This document shows positions 3,821 through 58,000 of a DNA stretch of 64,000 nucleotides, one piece after another. The position numbers and the translations under genes were made by a program. The first letter of the stretch is position 1. Each line of letters opens with the position of its first letter. Source of the DNA: Iphione sp. A-MEVVRFRX5 (Eukaryota). The stretch spans positions 56,048,001 to 56,112,000 of the forward strand of contig OZ320316.1 of the NCBI GenBank assembly GCA_976226885.1, read 5' to 3'. Under the pieces are notes generated by a model. It searched no databases. It saw only the letters and a program-made list of their open reading frames with translations, and was not told the origin of the DNA.

Positions 3821-6800
3821 ATAGACACTACCTTACATGATCGGAATCATACAATGATAGTCCATAGTTCATACTCCTCATCAATATATATAGCTGTATA
3901 TATATATATGTCCATAGAACTATTACCTGTAAATAACTGTAAATAGTATGTAAGAAATCTGTACCTTTTCGATGTAGTAAAATCTTGGTGCTAATGGATT
4001 GCCAGGTAAAATATGTGAATAAAAAAGGGCTCATTTTGTCATGGAATGGTTTATTCACAAAGCAAGCTACTCTAAGCATATTGCTCAATGCGGGAGAGAT
4101 CTTGTATAATCTCCATGTAAAATGAAGCAAAGAAAATTCGAAAGAAACGTAGTCTCGAGGTGAAAACAAGTACGGATATGAGGGCGGTCTGCCCACTCAC
4201 TTGGTATGAGCTCACTGGTTTTCATATTTCATGTCTTTTGTATGTAAAACGAGATGTACCATTCTCCCTGTGTCCGAAACGTTTTCTTCTTATTACTTTT
4301 CGGGGGTATAAATGGCGTTCAGACAAGCCTTCCTCCCCGAGGCGACATGGCATAGCATTAGCCGAAAGGAGACTCAAACAAGTTTACATCTGCAGAAATA
4401 GTTATACAAAAACTCCAGACTTGGACACAAATGAGCTTACCTTTAGATCCGCAAAATACAGAGACAGCGACCCATTCGGACATTTTATCAAACAGATTTA
4501 TTTAAATAGAAAGTATATACAAATACTCAAAGTCATAATTATGCAGCCACATCGAAAAAAAACCCACAAGTACAGTCATAGAGAGAAATGCCTATCTGAA
4601 AATGTATGTATACATGTATGTATATTTAATATATTTTCAAAGCGTACAAAATAAACTCATACCGTCCAGAGACCGTCCTAATAACTGACACAAGTGTATA
4701 AAATGATACATGGTACGTGTAATACGTGTATTAGAGAGAAACAAGAGATGTAACAAGAAATTCAACTCCATACCGGAATAAAAACACAGTAGAAAACATA
4801 CGCGACCCCAAATTAGCAACTTGTAAATAAGTTGGCAAAATGAAAAGAGAACCAGGAAGTCGTCTAATGAACCGACGATACGTACTTCCATTTATTTCCG
4901 GTTTGTATTAAGCCTTCCTTCCCCAGCGGCCCCGACCCTTCCCTCAAGCTCTCTGGTAAAATAGCTGTCGACTTCTCTTATAATTGGCTACATTTCCCTT
5001 CCCTCACGTCTGCTGCACTCACACACACATATATAGACGCACGCACATACATACACGTACCCATGGAGACATATAATGCCGAATACACATGCACCGCAAC
5101 ATAAACACATACTACGTACGTGGGCATTATAATATGTGTACAAACAAAGAGAAAAGAATTCAGAATGCCAAGTCTAAGAGAATAGATATTCAGTCATATT
5201 TCATTTCATTGTATATTTAACCAGGAACTGGATGTTCAGCTATCATTTAAGCTGTTCTCCCATACCAGCCTAGGATAGCAAACTACTATCTCTTACTGAG
5301 AACTGTGAGCCCAGAATATCCAGGGTTGCCCCACACTTATATATTTAGCAATACCCAAAAAACAAACATGCTCTTCTTAATACATGTGTAGGCTATATAT
5401 ATATGTACAAATATATATTTATATATACAAGCAAAGAGTATTTTGCACACAAAACATTTAATATTATGTCTAGCTAAGAAAATAAGAAATATATAGTGCA
5501 GCAAAGAACACCAGAAAAGTTCTTTAAGGTTAGTTCCTCGCCCACTCGACAGCATTTTGCCTAAGGTTGTTCGGACGTCTTACTGTTTTCCATTGGAAGA
5601 AGGTCGGTATTGTTACCGGAAACACATGTTGTTTTTTAAAAGATTTGATAGTGAGTGCCAAAAGTTAAAAAGGTTAGTTATGTCCAGCTGCTCAAGCTTT
5701 CATAATAATAATGGCATTCATTGGTTAGTAGGCCTAAATTATCAAAGAATTGCGCGAGAGGCTCACATCTCCAACGAATCTTTAGCATTCTCAATAACTG
5801 TTGACATAGCGCCGACCAGATACTGCGACGCCTCAGCTTGGAAGTAAATTTATATAAACTGTACTGCAAAACGTTTGAAGCTAACATACTTATTTCTAAA
5901 TTTAAGATCAAACCTTGGAATGCATCCATGTAAGATACATTTTTCTAGTTTTTCTGTTAGCTATAACTGTTAGTTAAATATTAGTACTAATAAAGAAATT
6001 AATTTTTTCATCATAACCAAATTACTACTTATGTATTTAAGGAAGCACTGTTTTAGAAGAAAACTACATAAATCCATATGCCAGTTTTGAGTTATATACG
6101 CTGTCAGGGCTCAGGCACGTACGTGTGATCAGATTGATACGAGACCTATTAGGCCACAGCACGATAGCTCGATATATTAAGTGTCGCCGTTTCATGTCTA
6201 CCTGCGTCATAGAAAAAGATAAAATGGACATAAAGTCTGCAATTCGGCAGAGACAACAAACGTCAATAGCACATACCTGATTACGCGAAGAAGATGAATG
6301 ACAAACGCTTGAAAAAGCAAAGCCATTCCATACAAACACATGCATATTTTGGCCAGACCGTTTCCATGCGAATTCCCCTTTTTTTATTTCAGAACGAGAA
6401 CCACGCTTTATTTTTGTAGTTGGCTGAATTACCGCATGGATGCCCAAAGTCTGTTTGTGAAGCAGGACCAAGAGGGTTGAAGGGTCGCCTCTTGTTTACG
6501 CGCGTATTTGGTTCCGACATACCAGGAGTACATGTGGTGCACCCTAGGGTAACAAGAAGAACAGAAGAGGGGCAGTGAGTACGGCATAATGCACCTCTGT
6601 ATAGCCGACACTGCAAACCAAACAGGAACAATAAACATCTGCGGTTTAGAATTCACACTTCGTATCAAGGATATTCCATGGATTCCTCAACTGTAAATTA
6701 GAGGGACATTATCCAATGGGAATTTCAATCAATTAACTTTGATGATGATTATTAAATGAATTCTAAATGTATGTGTGCAAGATTGTGCGTGTTAGACGAA

Positions 6801-7699
6801 GGGCGCAAAATTCACGAAGATCTAACATGGCCTCGCCGGCACGTCTCCACTGGACATCGAGAACTGAAGGCGTTTGTGCTTTGCAGGCTTACCATGCAGG
6901 GTTTTTTCCTTTAGCTTTTCATCTTGCCATTTCAAGTGGAAAGGATGAATCCTGTTTGGTGCTTATCCTGAGTCTGAGATGGATCTATGCTCTGATTGAC
7001 CAAGTCCTTTTGCTATAAATAAGTTCCGTGATTCATTTTGCCAATAATCCAGAATAGTGCGTCTTTGCAATTCCCCGAGGTTGCGCAAGGTGACATCGTC
7101 ATGGAACAGGAAATTAAGGAATGACAACATTCATGACGGAAAATAGGACCCATTTTTAGACATTTCTTATCAGATTGATAACAACGTGTATTAATCAAGC
7201 AGTCACTTTATTCTTCAATTCACCTATTAGATAACTCTATGGGTATAATGGCGTTGACGTTCAAATATTTTGTGAAATAGGCGCCAAGACAAGGGCGGCG
7301 AGATTACACATCTTTTTCTATCTTTCAGTTTGTTTCCATGATGATTTCTAAGTATGCCTTCATCATCAATTTTCAAGAAAACACAAGTTTGTCTGTTCCA
7401 TATGTACCTCACGGTTTCCTAGACCAGGGTGCCAATGTCATCCATTATATACAGGATGTTCCATACGTGTGGATAAGTAAGGGAAATTCTTCTAGGTAAA
7501 CACGTATATATATTCGGGTAGCGTGCTTACGTAAAAGAAACTTGGTAGGTGTTGACTGAAGACGTGTAGACGTGTATTATGTTTAGATGATTTTTAATAT
7601 TGAAATTCTTCATCAAAAGATCCTTTCTGTTTTGTTGTTTTGACTGTATCATGTGGTCGCCAAGAACACATCGCTGTGCTTGGTAAGAAGAAATATCTA

Positions 7700-10430
7700 T
7701 GCAGCAAATTGTATTTGCTATCGACGATGTTGCTTACAGTGCAGGGATGTCTTATTCCCATCAGTTCGGTTCAACACAGTTTCTGGGTGATCTGCCAGCA
7801 AAGGCATCAGATGTGTTAATGGAAGCTCGGTAATTAGTTGGGCCATTTCTATCACCAAGGCGAGTGACTATGGTTGATTTGCACGCGTTTGATTGGATAA
7901 TTAAGGTGACCTGATTTGACCATACTTTTATGTTGGTCCAATGTCAGTAGAATGTATAACTGTTTCAGGAGAAAATTGAAAAGCATTCAATCAGACTTCG
8001 TTAGTAATTGGTGCAAATTAAGGCAACTGCAATTCGTAGTGTGTTCTGTTATATCACGACCGTCGTCACCTACAGGGCACCACTTACTTTGAAGGCCCTG
8101 ACATTGCCCCATCCATAAGAAATCTACCTGTGGCGTACTTGTGCATGGTGTGAGAGCCTTTTTGTCGTAATGGAATATGCACTTAAATTTGATAGAATGA
8201 TGAGTTCCTTTGGCCATAGTTTGGCCAGGTTTACATTTGTCACGTATGACAGGCACGTATAACTGCAGTGTTAATATCTCATGACTGAAGAAGGATTAGA
8301 GGCACCCACAGGCTTCTGGTTAATAGTCCATAATTAAATGGAGATGACAGCATGAACTGTTTTTGTGATATCATTTGTTTGCCAGTACCGTGTGGACCTA
8401 TCGGAGTAAACGCTGAATGTGACTTGTCACCTATCGGAGTAAACGCTGAGTGTGACTTGTCAGGTCATTCTTTGTTTTAATTGTGATGAATAAAAGTATG
8501 ACGCTATGTCGTCCGTGTTTGCCCAGGAACAAGAATAGAGTACAAAAAGGGTCTTATTCCTCATTTTACCTTATTGCTGAGAGGATTATTTCCATGTTGA
8601 GTTTAATCAGTCTAATGGATGATAAGAGTTTCTTCTCTTAATGATAACGGTTTTGATGACGTTTATCCCTTGACCCAAGAACAATATTGAATTTTCAACC
8701 CTTGAATTTTACAATTAATAGTGCTACCAAGCGGTCGCTTCTTAGCAGCATTGTTCTGGAATATAGTGGAGAGACATAGTCCATAGTGACCCTGATAGTT
8801 TCCGTAAAATAAAATTTTCATGGGCAATTTCTGTCTGAAAGTATGTGCTGTAGGTAATCCACTGCCATCAGTTCTGCCTTTCGACCCGCTTCGTGTTTGA
8901 TGATTCTGTGTTCAGTGGGTTATAGTCTTACAGGTGACCGTCATGGGATCGTTTAAAGCCCGCTCTACCTTACTAGAGGTCACCCAAGAAGACCTGGCAT
9001 ACTTTAAATTGTGATTTCAGTGATCTTTCTAGAAGTCCGATCTAGTAGAGATTCAGGATGTATTGTTACCCTCATAGATATTGCTGCTGTTACATTATTC
9101 TACCTAGGTAGAAAGTTTAATTTTTATACAATCTTTCTCATCGAAAGATACGCAATAAGACATAGACTGTGCTCTCACATTTTCCGATAAGTCCTTCATA
9201 CATTTCTACCAGTGGGTGCCTAAACGGTACTAGAATCGACGATGCAGAATTGTGATGATAGACTAGGAATGTTGTCTCAATCTTCATATAAAATGTGCTA
9301 GTTCCCTGGGCAAGGGGTTAGTTTTCCGTCACCGATTAATGGAGAATGAGACGTAAAGTTGAATGTAAAATCGCAGGGAGGTTTTTAACTCATAGTCCAT
9401 AGGGGTCTAACTTGAGCCAAGCGTTTTATTTGTGCATTTCAGCACCATAGGAGTGTCATATAATACCGATGAGTTTCCCTTGTCAACTCAAACTCTGTAG
9501 GAGATAATGAGATTGTCACCTTTTCTAGGTTTTACCCTTCAATGACTGTGTATATAGTGCGGTCCAAAAAAATGTGCAAAAATGCCTTCTCCTCGGGTAA
9601 CTAATATTTTAAGATAGTAATGTCCAACATAACATTTCCACCAAAATAACCAAAGATTTGAAAATTTGAATACCAATTCTGTGGAGAGACTGCAACAAAT
9701 ATTGGCTTACAGATGTGGCGTCTATTGAGGAAATGTGCAATCGTTTGATATCGTACTCGTTATCATGTATACAGGCTATCAATTTCTATAGTAATTAACG
9801 GTTCGGTACCAACAGAAGCTCGTTATCATGAATACAGCGTTATCAGCTTTTGAGATATCACTGCAGTAATAAGAATTGTACTTAGTCAACAATTTGTGGT
9901 CTTTATAGGTTGACCCGTAGTGTTTTTTGCAATGGCATATTGTATGTAGATTCATGGGAGCCTTGTATGTTGGGCAATGTCTCCTGTCAATGTATTTTAA
10001 AGCACGTATCACCAATCCCTTTAATGGCGGGTCTCAGTATTCCCTCTGAATTCTAAATGATTCATGATAATACTTAGATGTACGTTTTGTAACATTCTAA
10101 AAATATGAGGAGTACCTTCTATCATTTCTAGGCCCACTCTGCATGGCTGCATCTTATTCATGCCCAGTCAGAACAGTAGAAATGAAGAACAATTAAATGT
10201 CCAATTGTCTATCATAAAACACCCATTGCGTATCAGAATTTCTCTCATTTATTCCTCTCTGATGACATATTCAAACAACATCGTTCTTATTGGTCAAATT
10301 ATCTCAGAGGTGAGTGATACTGAGAATCCGCTACATACTTTGACGTCATAGTGAACGTTTTCATTCAGCAATCTACCCTCATGTTTGAATCAGACCGCTA
10401 TTTCAAAGGTTCAACTGATTTGCCCTTGTC
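7700..10430 (-). mobile_element. Fossil Ty3/Gypsy-like pol: PR-RT-RH/tether-second RNase H (RNase H1 type)-integrase
   Basis: Ordered motifs across frameshifts. PR: (D>N)SG ~10400. RT: EGILRP 10046, IDRR 9991, DISKA 9859, I(N)DL.ISS ~9745, YVGH 9631. RH/tether: YDTPMVL 9460, RELA 9307. Second RH: Y..SSWV..GRAG ~9000, KAELMAV 8877, KILF/T(E) 8815, AAKKRPL 8743, SWVKG 8677. Integrase: DINTAVIRACHT*Q 8278-8237, PETV..TDIGP 7969-7934, HPET..LNRT 7789-7763. Confidence 0.75.
8396..8462. repeat. 33-bp tandem duplication (2 copies)
   Basis: ACCTATCGGAGTAAACGCTGA(A/G)TGTGACTTGTC twice with 1 mismatch, inside the Gypsy pre-integrase region. Confidence 0.95.
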
Positions 10431-10623
10431 CCTTTGCAGATGTAGTTGTATTCATCCACGATATGCCACATGTATTACAGGAAAAATGGAATTATGAATC
10501 CAGCTCCCCACTGACCAATTCAGAGCGATTATTGTAATGATTATGTCATTTGACCTGAAGCTATAATACATCTGGCTTTGCTGGACACAGTAAATCTCTA
10601 TCTGAGGACGTGTTAACATTCAA

Positions 10624-10665
10624 TAAGGCCTACTGAAAATGACATGTGTTACCTGCAGCCCGACC
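10624..10665 (+). mobile_element. Orphan terminal repeat of the TAAGGCC...TGTGTT...CCGACC (Academ-like) MITE family
   Basis: TAAGGCCTACTGAAAATGACATGTGTTACC...CCGACC resembles the termini at 16478, 22990 and 53919. It truncates the Gypsy element upstream of the protease. Confidence 0.4.
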
Positions 10666-11265
10666 AACTCTTCATTTGGCTGCTGAAACGTTGAAACAAT
10701 TATTTTGTAATTAAATACATTGGGGTTAAATACAGATACAGATTCACTATACAGCATTGTGTTTCTTCGATCATTAGCTTTCACATGGTATAAGACTAAT
10801 AACGATCAAAACAGTAGAAGTGGTTATCCAAGATTGTAAAGTACTGTCTAGCCTTTTCACTGGAACGTTTGTAGGTAAAACACAAAAGAAAAACCACCAC
10901 CCTACGGACCCATGCATAAATGTTCAACATATTACCGGAAGCAAAGAGTTTTTTCTTGTCTAGGGCTAATCGCATATGTCAAATTTCTTTTTCACATTTG
11001 AAACTTCATTCAATATACACAGACAGTTCAGTCCCATCTGAAAAGACCTGTTCCACACTCAAACCTCCTCAATCACGCATACACACACCAACCCACTCAA
11101 TTACACACCACCGCACAAATAATTTAAGACGGCGACAGGTCGATTAATCCTGGAACAAGCTTGAATCCAAAGAAAGACAGAAGAACCTATGCCTAATATG
11201 TTGTTGCAATTGATGTTAAACATAACAGAAAAAAACAAATATTTATCGGTAAGCAACAGGATCAT

Positions 11266-12149: not shown

Positions 12150-13980
12150 CCATACTTATCGTCCCCTCAATATTAACCCATGATCCCTTGCCCTCCTCAC
12201 TGCCACTCTCTTTCTCTGTCTCGCTGATTGGTTGCAGTCCTGGTTCCTTGAGTAGCATCCCAGTCCTGGTCTCTGATTGGTACACACATGGCTTCCTCAG
12301 CCTCACCCTGCAGGCGGTGTGCTGAGGTATCGCAGCGCGCCCCCAAGTGTGGCCGCCCGGTACTGCAGTGACTGTTTGGAGGGTTTGATTGAATCCTGCT
12401 TATGAAGCTGCTGCCCTCAACCGGCTGCTAAGTCCCTGTTGTATGTTGGTTAAACGTGCCCGAGGGAGAGGAAGCTCAGGGTAGTTCGGTGTGGTGTGAC
12501 GGGACGAGCTGTGGTTAGATGTGGTAGTACTAGAGGTGGAGAGTGATGAGAGGTGCTGTGCAAGAGCGGATGAGTGGTGCGGAGCAGTGATGATGGCGGA
12601 TGACGCTTATTGGAGACGATGACGATGGAAGAGCAGTTGAAGCGTGGAAAATGGTGAAATTAATGGTGTTAAGTGGTGGATAGTAAATCATTATAGGTAG
12701 TAGTGTCTCGCCTTTGTGTTTTGCACTGCTGGTTAGTTATGAGAGTGGCTATAGTTTGTCGTAGGTAATATTTAGCTAGAGGTCTATTGTATATACTGAT
12801 GGTAGTTTGTTACCAACAAGCTGGCGGGGTAGGTGGTTGATAATGATGAAATATATAAAGTGGTGGGTGTTGATACGAATAGCATGTGGGCGGTAATGAG
12901 ATTAAATCGTATTTGACAAATAATGCTGCTGACACTGACGGATGACTGTGGTTATAAGTGATGGTTGGAGGTATAAGTGGTGTATTGTGTGTGGTATCAG
13001 CGGTCGTGGTGTGTGGTGGTGGTCTGTGGTGACGACTGTGGTAGTGGCACTAGCAATCGTTGTAGTGGTGGACAGTTGCTACCAGTATTTGATGGTTGTT
13101 GGTGTTGGTAGGTGGAAATTGGTTTCGGTTGGTGGTGGGTGCTTGTCTGTTGTATATGATTACGGGTGATTGAATTGCTAGACAGTATTGTTGTGGTGGG
13201 TTGTGAGTATTAGTTAAGTAGTGGGTAGTACATGTATATGTAGTCGGGTAGAGACGGCAGTGGCATGTTGCGGGTAGCGTCAGGTAGTAATTAGTTTCAG
13301 TAGTAGCGTGTTGGGTAGTAGACGTCTTAGGCGATGCTGAGCTAAGGCGGGTGAAAAGCCTAGGATGGAGAAGGCTTGTAGTTACAGGCGCTGGGTGGCG
13401 GACCGACAAACACCCGTGTTAAAGGCACGGGAGGCGGCGCCGTTCTCACACTAGGACTAGTAACACTTGGTAAGGAGGGACGTTACCACTGGTGGACGCG
13501 TCTCTCTGACGGCAGCGCGAGCAGCAGGCAGGACAAAACACTGACTAGCCCCGGGGACTGTAGGAGTAGCATTGCCACCAGCACCACTGGACAAACGGCT
13601 GACGGTAAAACGTAGGTAGGTTTAAAGTTTATACGTATGATCGATAAGTAGGGGGTGTTTGGTTATTTAGGCAACGCTTGTTAAAATGGTCTGGAGTTGG
13701 TAGGCCGCGCCTGTATTTGAAGGGGGCAGTAGAATTAAGAATGTTCGGGAGGGGGTTGAGTCAGAGAGGCATGGCTTGGTTTCGGTAGGTAGGCGTTAAA
13801 AGGTTGTGTGGTAGTTCGTTGTCAGACAAATTGGCTAAGGAGGGTTTGGACAGGGGAACTGTTTGGTCGTAGGTATAGGTAGAATATCCTCAGGGGAGGC
13901 GGGGCTCGTTAAGGATAGGTATTTTGGACCAAACCTGACTGCTCGATTGAAGGGATCGCTTAACATTGAAGTAACGGGTA
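12150..13980 (-). mobile_element. Decayed Ser/Thr/Pro-rich gag/ORF1-like region, possibly DIRS/Ngaro type
   Basis: Extreme G+T skew on plus. Minus translations include SLSTSSTTTSNHSSS..ELPLPRARLTNIQQG (similar to P.P......I..G of DIRS/Ngaro gag) and SHCSTGRPHLGARC (a knuckle-like remnant). No RT or tyrosine recombinase was found adjacent. Confidence 0.3.
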
Positions 13981-14108
13981 GTGCCGACATAACTTTTGCT
14001 AATTATGACGTTATTATGAGAATCAACCAATCAAATCACTGAAAATTCAGACAATGTCACAATTTGGTAAAAGTCGACACTAACCGTTACTTCAACGTCC
14101 AGCGATCC
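13953..14108. repeat. Imperfect inverted repeat (~55-bp arms, ~46-bp spacer containing CCAAT)
   Basis: GGATCGCTTAACATTGAAGTAACGG-GTAGTGCCGA...AATTATGAC versus GTCACAATT...TCGACACTA-ACCGTTACTTCAACGTCCAGCGATCC. Confidence 0.8.
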
Positions 14109-16357
14109 GCTAATTGTTTCATCCTAGACAGCCTAGCTATCAGTATTTCTGGTTGGAAAAAGTACCATGACACACTTGATTCCTTTTGATGTGTATCTAA
14201 ACGACCGAACTTTTCACGTCCAAATGGGGCTAATGTCTCGGCAGACATGGCCGCTCAGACAACAGCTCAACTTTAGGTTGACCATTTAATGGTTGTCAGT
14301 AAAACGACAGGTTCTCCCTTCCTGATAATTCAGCTATAAGGGTTACAAATGGCGCTTGCGTGCGGGTAAACGAGCGGGAGTTGATCCCATATGTTACTAT
14401 GGGTGACCATTGCGATACTGAGTTTCCCTACGTTAGCTCTGCCTTTGAATGAAAGCTGACAGTGCTATAGAAGACTTCGTCCGGTATCCTATGAAGAGAA
14501 TATTTCCACTTTATCGCTTTCCGTGACGCCAAGCTAGTATTTCCTGTGTTCAGCTGGGAACTGACAGAAGGCAAACATAGCCACAAGGTCATGTTGTAAA
14601 AGCTGCTTTCTTCATCGAGATAACTTTTTCTTTAGTTTCTGGTCAGTCACATGGCCTTACCCTATCCGTTTCCATTTTATGGAATGCAGACCATGGACAT
14701 TGCTCTAGAAGATATATCGGGAAAGCCATAACAAACGTTGTTTTTGTTTCCATGTTTACCAGAGCGTTTTCGAGACAGTGCCCATGTCATCCACTGCATA
14801 CAGGATTTTTCATGAGTGTGGAAAAGGGGCCGAACTCGGGGATTTGTCTAGAAAAAAATGTACTTATGTATAGATAGCTATCGCTTAAAAGAAAACGGTA
14901 GATTATGACTTACTACACTATATAATTAGTATGCTAACGCATAAACGTGAATTACCAGAATGTTTGATTCACATAGCTTCAGGTAGTAACCTTTATTTGC
15001 AGTGAATTTGCTACATTCTACCGGCGCTTGATGAACTACAGAGAATCCATTTAATGCACAGTGAAAAGTTTTAAACGCAACATCGCCAGAGTAGTATTTT
15101 CAATCAACAGTCCTTGTAATAGCACACTTAAGCCTGTCCATAGCCGCCGATGAAATACAAACTGATCTACCGGCATCACAGAAACAGTCTAGGTGCCTGC
15201 TCATAAATGTTTCAGATATTTTCTAAAACGCCCTTTCAGAGTCACAACGAAGCCTTTCACCTGTCCCTATACGAAAGCCTCGTCTGACTGAACCGCTGAA
15301 CTACATAGAGTTTGACGTCTCATCTGTTCCCATGAGATATCCAAATTATAATCCGGGGCACCCTAAACTGATATTCTCTAGAATCTCATAATGCCACATA
15401 ACATAGACAAAAATTGTTTGTACATATTTTTAAACAGTCCATTACATCATTTCATTTCAAGCCATGTATCCAACTAAACCCACTCATAATAGACACTCTA
15501 TATCCTTTTGGCTTCCCGTAGGCCGTTCTCCTAAATACCACTCATGTACTTTGGTTGTCAATATGTGTCGAGGTGACTAATGATCTCCTCTTGTACATGC
15601 TGTTTTTGTTGCCAATAAATCACTTTCCTCCTCAGTAATACTTTTGTAGCTTAGGGATTCATTCCTACAGATACATCTTTCATATATCTGCGCTATGTAA
15701 ACCACCATGCGCGAATAGCCGGTTTAAGAGGGAACTGTACCTTAAAGCACACTGAAGTCAAATTATAGAACCAGCATGGATCCATAATTGATAAAACAGG
15801 AGACAGACTAAAAAATCTTTGATAACCTGGAGTGATTTTTACAAGGAGAATTCTCACATTTTTAAAACAACTGGGACAAATATATTCTAAATATTCACTT
15901 CAGAGCGTGTTGAAAACATGGACGTGCATATGCATATGTACAAAGCAGCGGACGTTGTCGCTCTTCTGTCTTCTGTCGAGTACTTCACTAGAGTACTGCA
16001 CTGGCAGTTTTAATTATTCAACCTCTGGAATCCAAATTTTGATCTATACTTGATCAAGAACCCCAAGCAGAATCCCTAGAAAATTGGAGAATTAGAGACG
16101 GAAGCAGAACTGTGCACAGTATGCTCGTCTGCTCAACAAGAGAGAGTGATTGCGTATGCAGTGCAGTTCAGTGTTTTGGCTATAAGGTGTTCAGGGCATA
16201 ATTTGTCTTCGCTCTTGGCTCCGTGACAAGTGGTTAAATGCACGATAGGCACCAAGACGAACAGCCCAGCTTTCAACTTACCTGTTAGTCTGACTGCCTG
16301 TAACATCAGCAAATGCCTCATAACTGTCATGCATGGGTGATCAATGTTGTATGTATT

Positions 16358-18438: not shown

Positions 18439-18657
18439 TTTTCATGAATTAAATTCATCTTTAGCATGACTTGAAGAAATTTTTGCTGCCTTTTCATAAA
18501 TTCAATGCATCTTTAGCCAAACCTCCAGTAATATTTGCCACTTTTCATGAATTAATCACACCTTTAGCACTACCTCCGGGAAATATTTGCTGCTTTTTTC
18601 ATGAATTGAATGCATCTTTAGCATAGCCTCCAGAAGTATATTTTTCCTTTCATAAAT
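18439..18657. repeat. ~52-bp minisatellite, ~4.3 diverged copies
   Basis: Units begin TTTTCAT(G/A)AATT at 18439, 18491, 18542, 18596 and ~18648, and share CATCTTTAGC and CCTCC..AA.AT motifs. Confidence 0.85.
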
Positions 18658-55089: not shown

Positions 55090-58000
55090 TTCATACCACA
55101 TTCATACCCAGGGGACAAAAAGGTGGAGAAGGGATAGGAGAGTAGGGATGAGGGAAAGAGATAGTGGAGAAGAGGTTTTGGGGGGCCTCAGCACATCAAG
55201 GAGCAGTACAGACCATCACACACCCAAAGAAGTACAGTTGAGTCAGGCATACCTCAGGGGGTAGGTCCCGTAGGAAGGCCGCATCTCTTGTGGGGAGAGG
55301 CAATGGGTGAGCCTGCAGTTAGGGACAGGTTCTTCTGTTATTGACACTGGTATGAGTGACAGTGGCATGGCCCCATGGCAGCATTGGAGATCATTCATTC
55401 ATTAATGAGGTCTTTTGTAGAACTATTCAAAGCCATCATCCTGGGCACACTTGATCATGTGTGCTGCAAGGTGGGGATCTGAGAAGAGAACTAGGCTCTC
55501 ACCACTACACCACTACCATATCTGTAAATGGGAGCAATGATCATCTCCTGACAGTTGGTCAAGATGTGGTGGATCAAGAAGATCTCCCCAAATATGCAAG
55601 GTTGTTAGTCTGGTAAGTCTACCAGACTGCAGTATCCTAGCCTTAGTCTCTTGGCTGTGGTCTGGATGCTTCTCCAAGCGTTCAACCTTGGAGGAGGCAG
55701 GTCTGCATTATAGAAGCTGGTACCACTTCAATCTGTGAGATGGTCAAGCAGTGTCTAGGCTGGATCTCTATTTTTCCATGGCCATTCTCTTCATGGATGA
55801 TAGAGTTCACTGCAGGGAGGGATCAGTGGGCATGGTAACAGCAGCTGATAATAAAGGTATCTTGACTACCTTTTCTGCTGCCCCTTTCAGTGATACCTAC
55901 ATGTGAAGGGATCTAGTGGAAGACGTTTCTGAGCCCATCAATTGCTTACACGAGCTACATAACAAAATGTCCTACACACAGTGATGCATCCATTGTTACT
56001 GATTCATTGCAAGTACATGTCCAGTGCTATACAGATTGCGGTAAGCTCAGTGGTAAAGCTGGATGCCCCGTCACTAACCCCTTTGGCAGCCCAGTCTGGT
56101 AAGGCTACAAAGGCAGTGCTTGCTGTCCCTGTCTCTGAGTTTATGCTTCCGTTGATATAAATATGTAGAGATTCAAGATTGTCTCCTGAATCTCCTCTGC
56201 CTTTAGAAGCACAATTGTTTTCAGGATGGCAGCTTTGATGTCCACTTTCTTGGTTGATGGTAACTTTGCCACTATGATGACTGGAAGTGGTTTCCAGAGT
56301 GGCAAGTTAAGCGGACCTAATCTGGTGATGAAGTGACCACCTAGGCTTAGAGCCTGCTTGATGGTCCCCCTCAGAGCCTTAGTCATGCCCTTGCATCTGA
56401 TTTCAGGATTCTCAAGTCCTTTCTTGAGGATGCCCATCAGGCTTGCGCCCAGTGTGGTGGCTGTCCTTACCAGGAAGGAGGCTGCATCTTGTTGGATGCA
56501 ATCCTTGATCAGGGGAAGATCTTTTTCTTATTGCATCATCTTGATCCTGGTGAACATTGGAGCTGTGACCATCTTCCTTATGGCAACATTCTGTTGATGG
56601 TCTAATGCCCCCAGTAGCAGATTTGTCTTGCTGTGTAGCTTCTTCTTCAGAGTTCAGGCATGCTCCAGCAAGAAGCTGAGTGCCAGAACAGTATAGTCTA
56701 TGATGGATAGGACCGCCTGGATATAGTATTGGTACAGGATCCATGTTTGCAACCCAGGCGAATCCTGAGAATACAGCCATGAGTCTAAGCCTGTCACTTA
56801 GTTTCTTGGTGATGTACCTCACTATGAGTTGTATGGAGTGATCCTCAAGGATAACACTACCTAGGTATTTGTAGCTGGTTAACCTCTCAATTTGGCCCCT
56901 TCCAAATTCTAGTTCCTGGCCTGGCCTGCCCCCTTTGATGAAAATGGCCTTGGTTTTTGAAAGTGAAACTTTTAAACCAAGGCATTGACATTTCTTCCAG
57001 ATGATATTGAGTGTATGGTTAGCTGTGGAGCATACATTAATTCTGTTCACGCAGATCAGGGTAATGTCATCTGCCTAGGAGAACATGGTTATCTCTGGTA
57101 TTTGGGTGGCAACCAGCTGCTCCATGGTAGAGTTGAAGAGCAGTGAGCTGAGCACACCTCCCTCAGGTACGCTATTGTGTAGATCATTTTACCCTAAGGA
57201 TTGTCCCTAGAAAGATACCCTTACTTCCCTTTCCTGTAGTTGTCTGCAACATAGGCAAGTAATTTTCCTTTTACTCCAGACTTTGCTAGGCAGCTTAGGA
57301 CCATGGTGTGGTCCATAAACTCAAAGGCCTTTTCTAGATCAAGATAAATGACAATGGATTCCAGTCTCCCTTGTACAGCACCTAAATTTTGTCCAGCACA
57401 GTGTTAAACCAGAGTGCTATGGAACAACTTGGCATGAAGCCATAGATGTGTTTTGGAAGTTTCTGTCCCAACAGGTCAGTGGTATGCTTGACTCTTTGGA
57501 CCAGAGCCTTCTCCAGCACTATATCAATTGTTTGTAGCAATGTTATGGGTCTTTGCCTGCCTTCTGGTTTGGGTATGAGTATGATGTTGCCCAGTTTCCA
57601 AGCTATGGGAATTTTGCCTTCCTGTCAGGAAGGTTGGTTTGACTTGTTTTTCTGGTGAATAGGCAGGCAGGTTCCTCTGCTTTTTCCTCTGGGTTGGGTA
57701 GGTGGGCAGATTTGGAAGTCTTGCCTTTGATTTTGTCCTAAAGCTCTTTGGTTGTGGTGTGAGCATTAAATGTGCCACACTAATCTTCCCAAGCTCTGCT
57801 TTCTCTTCTGAGTAGACCTTTTGGCCCATTTCTGGGCTTGCCGCAGAGCTTCCAGTGTGGCAGGGGTAGAGATCTTTTGGCAAAGTCTTTCGAGCTGGTT
57901 GACAGCTGCCATGGCTCTCTAGGACCAGGGTGAGTTGTACCACCAGCAATAACTTCTAGCTTTCCCAGACCTTGGTGTGTTTTTATCCACCACAGCACAG

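Follow-up and report, generated by a model that had tools for sequence, protein, structure and literature searches.

The Locus and Its Host

Does a decayed piece of an invertebrate genome preserve the pol gene of an LTR element with two RNase H domains, the first serving as a tether and the second as an RNase HI-like nuclease in the manner of retroviruses? An earlier note had proposed this for positions 7700-10430, minus strand, of the window, by which we mean the whole 64-kb stretch of DNA analyzed here (G000:C10:56048001-56112000 in a 1.18-Gb genome). We conclude that the locus is probably the pol of a decayed LTR element. Since the disputed block at 8600-9001 scores only slightly above the genome background, we regard the retrovirus-style double nuclease as a possibility and not as a finding.

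The host is an annelid according to the gene order of its mitochondrial contig (C89, 15,544 bases), which confirms the invertebrate host that the earlier note had supposed. All 21 detected tRNAs and the protein genes of this contig lie on one strand, in the order cox1, cox2, cox3, nad6, cob, atp6, nad5, nad4L, nad4, nad1, nad3, nad2. The name cox1 was assigned via Pfam; the other names are putative, and the order appears to agree with the conserved annelid one. In the same contig, tRNA-Cys and tRNA-Met flank tRNA-Gly, and cob and tRNA-Trp flank tRNA-Leu(UAA), positions that we take to be small departures from the common annelid order. The telomere-like repeat TTAGGG was found at four of the six chromosome ends read.

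The references comprised the locus L078, Loki proteins, the Odin-like Pol P0124, 10 gamma-type, 8 foamy, and 2 fish retrovirus records and, from the host genome, 20 Gypsy loci (L132-L151 included), 29 LINE RNase H loci, and the host RNase H1. L078 is a near-complete lokiretrovirus-like locus (gag, pol, env-like frame) in a metagenome record, likely of fish host DNA. P0124, from an ENA contig of 17,175 bases, is an Odin-like Pol complete at 1,658 residues, both RNase H domains included, and its RT and RNase H motifs agree with the Odin rows in the PMC9040795 supplements. The host RNase H1 (L005, G000:C17:78650918-78651853, minus strand) is the best RNase_H match of the genome. It is an intronless single frame of 312 codons with a Gly/Ser/Tyr-rich linker, possibly a retrogene, and had no exact match in the collection looked up. 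The host Gypsy Pol frames of L064, L143, and L147 continue past the integrase into C2H2-zinc-finger-like sequence.

Order and Spacing of the Pol Motifs

The features of the fossil and its immediate flanks are the following.

10615..10961, strand unassigned: dispersed repeat just upstream of the fossil, 67-82% identical to copies elsewhere
10312..10338, minus: string VCSGFSVSL, similar by eye to the protease active-site motif DxG-xx-S in the fetched Pols (no Pfam match)
9420..9960, minus: putative reverse transcriptase (RT) remnant with SPQNW at 9687-9673 and a YxDD-like string split over two frames at 9631-9610 (by eye)
9010..9290, minus: putative first RNase H, Gypsy-type or tether, with CIVDSST at 9246-9226, LIAYLS at 9159-9142, and VTIHP at 9069-9055
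8600..9001, minus: bridge between RNase H and integrase, or decayed second RNase HI (z 3.2-3.4 against shuffles; no Pfam or PDB match), with YARSSWV at 9001-8981, GRAGF at 8969-8955, KAELMAV at 8880-8860, MKILF at 8821-8807, AAKKRPL at 8749-8729, and SWVKG at 8680-8666, then a stop
8396..8461, strand unassigned: 33 bases duplicated in tandem within the bridge (97% identity)
7700..8400, minus: putative Gypsy/retrovirus-type integrase remnant with ACHT*QM at 8254, QVDFL at 8130, IHSTDIGP at 7957, HSPW at 7866, LMGIR at 7764, and YNLL at 7713
7380..7557, minus: part of another old repeat, which terminates the fossil; a further copy lies at 14730-14910 (66% over 187 columns, E 4e-11; no Pfam match)

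By eye, protease-, RT-, Gypsy-type RNase H-, and integrase-like strings flank the disputed block in Gypsy order from 10338 to 7702. The collinear series described in the earlier note therefore stands as an order of motifs, but profiles support it for the integrase only, and weakly. The fossil carries many stops and frameshifts, and no frame within 7700-10430 is open for 110 codons; we infer that it no longer has any coding function. With stops read as X, Pfam matched none of 3 whole frames and none of 17 pieces, and both lokiretrovirus controls gave RNase_H, RVT_1, RT_RNaseH, and rve. A search of 1.84 billion protein representatives, with stops again read as X, gave no match, the PDB nothing relevant (one tag-driven match, E 0.69), and the Rfam and tRNA scans nothing. 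Such library negatives are expected and prove little because the fossil has so many frameshifts.

Frameshift-aware profiles, the check that the earlier note had proposed, gave weak signals, and these for the block and the integrase only; loose indel settings broke such alignments. Single-protein frameshift alignments to seven host proteins, seven frames of L078, and 55 Pols were noise, and none of six of these Pols, when re-tested against 40 shuffles, aligned collinearly. RT profiles gave no signal in restricted tests (z -1.1 to 0.7 and 0.0-0.4). In two 4-kb scans an RT profile scored above shuffles but was outscored by 7-9 of 28-29 tiles, with misplaced alignments; the Loki RT profile reached z -0.8 to 0.7, and no RT profile of any kind scored. 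The AYxS block of the first RNase H gave about 10 bits, and the whole domain showed no signal with the Gypsy RNase H profile (z 0.3; 583/1,620 tiles as high). No recognizable tether was detected (z 0-1). The strings SMPG (9003) and LGDL (8987) sit where the Gypsy RNase H tail is expected (9010-8960). The tail motif (I.Y.PG..N..AD.LSR) scores at the background median, with 1,330 of 2,620 tiles as high, and is outscored a little by the RNase HI head (361/2,620).

The integrase strings are Gypsy-type by eye, and the Gypsy profile sets the integrase chain at 8399-7554. In the core, the two Asp residues are 60 codons apart, as in the references (60), followed by 28 codons versus 29. Taken in order, the chain gave z 2.4 (1/40 shuffles and 2/54 tiles as high) and, in a second set-up, z 1.9; 55 of 720 genome tiles, real integrases among them, scored as high. 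A GPY/F-like motif at 7435 is not counted because it falls inside the other repeat (7380-7557). The chain for the whole Pol reached z 2.2 when it included a second RNase H (1/30 shuffles, 0/54 tiles) versus z 0.9 without. Its score was reached by 29 of 480 genome tiles with the second RNase H, real elements included, and by 136 of 480 without; the gain from the second domain was equaled by 19 of 480.

Among the claims of the earlier note, that of a fossil LTR retroelement is thus upheld by the integrase core, with spacing that agrees with the references at z 1.9-2.4, but receives no profile signal from RT or first RNase H. Because these two domains are silent and the whole-chain score is also reached by background tiles, even the LTR-element reading is likely, not proven.

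From the T.H of the first RNase H to the CxxC of the integrase we counted 271 codons, 11 of them from the tandem duplication. This distance is 184-409 codons in the host Gypsy elements (16 of 20 measurable), 299-329 in gamma-type Pols, 319-330 in foamy Pols, and 398-409 in Loki/Odin (15 of 17). The block is therefore not "extra" in length, as the earlier note had called it, since 271 codons falls within the range of 16 single-RNase-H Gypsy Pols of the same genome. From YxDD to CxxC the fossil measures 460 codons versus 399-624 (median 440, n = 16) in these Gypsy elements, 533-544 in foamy (n = 8), 513-543 in gamma-type (n = 10), and 612-624 in Loki/Odin Pols (n = 15). The fossil is shorter than the references elsewhere too (160 versus 172 and 29 versus 42 codons), so that before this shortening it may have been as long as gamma-type or foamy Pols.

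Single RNase H Element or Mosaic

The reading that we tentatively prefer, as the most probable of those considered, is an ancient Ty3/Gypsy-type pol with a single RNase H, in which 8600-9000 is a variable bridge that has come to resemble RNase HI through chance decay. A Ty3/Gypsy-type element with the usual single RNase H would have inserted long ago and decayed neutrally through many small deletions, with loss of recognizable LTRs and gag. Another retroelement piece would then have cut off its 3′ end, and the decayed bridge letters would look like RNase HI by chance. The host Gypsy elements (Metaviridae) resemble the fossil in domain order, in overall spacing, and in an integrase placed by the Gypsy profile. 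They differ from it in that no significant DNA or protein similarity connects them and in that RT and RNase H of the fossil are undetectable by profile. Even the preferred reading has no statistical support of its own, given its RNase H profile at z 0.3 and a tail at the background median.

Alternatively, there may have been no single element, and the 2.7 kb may combine unrelated ancient repeats with unique DNA in a mosaic that includes, perhaps, one integrase remnant and otherwise chance motifs. This reading gains from RT and first RNase H being at background in the restricted-region tests, from 0/6 re-tested Pols being collinear, and from the number of tiles, real elements included, that reach the whole-chain score. 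By eye, 9246-8930 can also be read as what we take, from its motifs, to be a Copia-type protease; decayed DNA therefore yields motifs easily, which is a further point for a mosaic. However, about a dozen motif strings follow, across 2.6 kb, the order and approximate spacing of a single pol gene, and the integrase core spacing is nearly exact. We consider the mosaic unlikely, although it stands first among the alternatives.

The Disputed Block

All six block motifs quoted in the earlier note are present on the minus strand, spread over three frames. With a mixed retroviral profile applied to the block only, we obtained z 3.3 (0/100 shuffles and 11/484 window tiles as high), z 3.4 (0/200 shuffles, 25/1,260 genome tiles), and z 3.2 (0/200 shuffles, 17/1,260 genome tiles), all values for the same DNA under about eight set-ups and hence not independent. 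Of two motif-chain versions, one gave z 0.0 and the other z 3.0 (4/200 shuffles, 56/2,280 tiles). The best block scores are thus equaled by 1.3-2.5% of genome background tiles, which places the block at about the 98th-99th percentile; 6 of 532 tiles from the window also reach it, and the highest-scoring of these is a real LINE RNase H. Local-mode frameshift-aware profiles gave no signal at the right place. In whole-domain mode, foamy and mixed profiles put an RNase H at 9001-8623 and 9001-8629 unaided within a 4-kb region, with scores that are not significant. Pfam gave no RNase_H match over 8600-9000, an outcome that the earlier note itself had set against its reading. The proposal that a second RNase H rises above chance therefore holds against shuffles but not against the genome itself.

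To gauge the power of the test we used four held-out bacterial and phage RNase H genes, which score a median of 66 bits intact, 8.6 bits at 30% substitutions and 3% indels, and 1.2 bits at 35% substitution and 4% indels; the block scores 7.6 bits. Power at 30% decay was 35/60. At about 30% decay a genuine RNase HI would thus look like the block. We estimate that the likelihood ratio for a real second domain is near ten, which would not outweigh the low prior.

The full catalytic set implied by the earlier note was not borne out, since only the Glu of AEL is read directly, and the first Asp, the Asp of TDS, and the His appear in no frame at those motifs. The earlier note had also taken WVKG to argue against an Arg-type enzyme. 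The position of the catalytic His after SWVKG is a stop codon, so His versus Arg is not callable. The spacing from Y to AEL is 41 codons versus 39-41 in KoRV-type and Loki references (hand count). A class I profile gave z 2.0 on the block, and the best of nine single references were a foamy Pol (L172, z 2.2) and an epsilon-type Pol (L262, z 2.0).

These observations bear on the reading in which a Gypsy-type RNase H turned tether is followed by a captured His-type RNase HI as the nuclease, gained either separately from Odin/Loki or on a deep branch close to retroviruses. The unaided placement within 4 kb, scores above 200/200 shuffles in two tests and 100/100 in another, the Y-AEL spacing, the in silico decay control (8.6 bits versus 7.6 observed), and a position directly 5′ of the integrase-like chain all speak for it. 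Against it, equally high scores occur by background several times per 64-kb window, one of the roughly eight set-ups gave z 0.0, Glu alone is legible, none of the nine single references exceeds z 2.2, and no relative was found among the matches listed (120 of 136). In addition, only 21 codons separate T.H from the supposed second domain versus 69-94 in all dual-RNase-H references, so that at least 45 codons would have to be lost between tether and second domain. Two RNase H domains thus seem improbable to us, and we rank this reading after the mosaic.

We give still less credence to a Gypsy fossil that later received an RNase H piece, be it an I-group LINE domain or a retrocopy of host RNase H1. 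The genome does contain many I-group LINE RNase H domains and the intronless RNase H1, and a native junction would need a longer gap than the one from T.H to the block. However, the LINE profile reached z 1.1-1.5 (70-84 of 484 tiles as high) and the cellular profile z 0.4-1.2, and the block has no DNA similarity to any fetched LINE or to the host RNase H1 gene. A real LINE RNase H at window position 55751, our natural control, scored 72.7 bits in the same test, and against this value an I-group LINE origin of the block is not supported. This control region (55400-57650, minus strand) is an I-group LINE interrupted by frameshifts; it includes RT and RNase H and shares 35-53% identity with intact LINE frames found at other places of the genome.

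Finally, membership of the Odin or lokiretrovirus family, which the earlier note had considered and which the by-eye resemblance of the strings to the published RNase H alignment (PMC9040795, supplement 4) would favor, is very improbable in view of an Odin/Loki RNase H profile (12 sequences) at z 1.1 with 239/1,260 tiles as high, P0124 at z 0.4 for the domain and 47 for the whole Pol versus a shuffle mean of 52.5, a T.H-CxxC distance of 271 versus 398-409 codons, and a block that has no YWKKVKGH-type motif.

Copies, LTRs, and Flanks

We looked for younger copies in the genome, as the earlier note had advised, and found none by DNA, protein, or pattern. DNA searches with 8550-9500 and 6400-10580 returned the locus itself only. 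Searches with protein pieces returned the locus and one weak match (E 0.008) at a host-gene locus that shows no retroelement features; pattern searches gave 2, 0, and 1 matches, each of which proved to be chance when read. A sensitive screen of 1,097,188 fetched bases detected no relative of the fossil. Since the genome DNA search missed a known piece of 66-72% identity only 7 kb away, older copies may exist unseen. Apart from the host RNase H1, we found no Loki- or retrovirus-like RNase H in the genome, and none of the Gypsy elements in a 600-kb sample has a second RNase H. Among the protein matches listed (120 of 136), those named or inspected were Loki-type, foamy, or Odin-like.

No direct repeats that could be an LTR pair surround the fossil in the first 30 kb of the window and a 10-kb flank, where loss by decay would look the same as absence. 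Downstream there is no env-like ORF or Pfam match. The upstream repeat at 10615-10961 is not assignable as an LTR of the fossil because no partner copy flanks the fossil. From its motifs we take the repeat at 7380-7557 to be Copia-type RT. It has 180 bases in common with a decayed element at 14200-15200 of the window (minus strand, SAETLA at 14245, no Pfam match), presumably a Copia-like RT and RNase H, again by motifs. Elsewhere in the window, 53 bases at 5394-5446 are 83% identical to the mitochondrial contig, possibly a tiny nuclear copy or a low-complexity match, and 18439-18657 holds four diverged tandem copies of a 51-54-base unit. An inverted repeat at 13953-14108 (36 bases, 86% complementary, 84 bases apart) resembles a stretch in L072 and is perhaps the end of a small DNA transposon.

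Comparison with Known Elements

In animal Gypsy elements long bridges are normal, and some contain RNase-H-like "pseudo" or "mini" folds (PMC13524379). Errantiviruses, polychaete examples included, have a domain-sized block between RNase H and integrase, as does the fossil; they differ in that no env was found in the fossil and in that the pseudo-domain is described as a fold, with no reference to His-type catalytic motifs in the same article. Annelid bridges that depart from the usual pattern may be listed in its supplements. If the block is real, the fossil has the combination of tether and RNase HI in common with Odin elements of sea anemones and with lokiretroviruses. It differs from them in its negative profile and single-protein tests, in a spacing about 130 codons shorter, and in its protostome host. 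Foamy, gamma-, and epsilon-type Pols gave the best, still weak, block matches and have AELxA and xAYLS strings in common with the fossil. Unlike Retroviridae, the fossil has an invertebrate host and an RT z below 1, and neither env nor an LTR pair was found.

Plant Tat and oomycete Chronos/Archon are Gypsy elements with an additional archaeal-type RNase H that has Arg at the His position (PMC4408406, PMC5348765). Their independent gains of a second RNase H are a precedent for the dual-RNase-H reading, whereas the His position of the fossil is a stop. Kuafu/Troyka elements were rejected as candidates, as they have a single RNase H and an xADD motif (PMC11673190, PMC12440569).

According to PMC9040795, 1,710 protostome genomes were screened by RT, and no Odin, Loki, or retrovirus-type element was reported. 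This screen used E 1e-5, and a fossil of such decay would therefore have been missed. In the literature covered, we saw no protostome LTR element described as having a second, catalytic RNase HI.

Implications

Motif chains as strong as the one described here recur several times per 64 kb in the host genome. We think it unlikely that an annelid LTR element carried a tether and a His-type RNase HI with motifs nearer to foamy and class I retroviruses than to Odin/Loki; protostomes would then have their first dual-RNase-H element, one that RT screens missed because only decayed copies survive. If the second RNase H is real, protostomes would have had a retrovirus-like Pol layout, of which PMC9040795 reports none among 1,710 screened genomes. 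Such an element would be relevant to whether animals saw a single origin of the tether-RNase HI layout or repeated ones.
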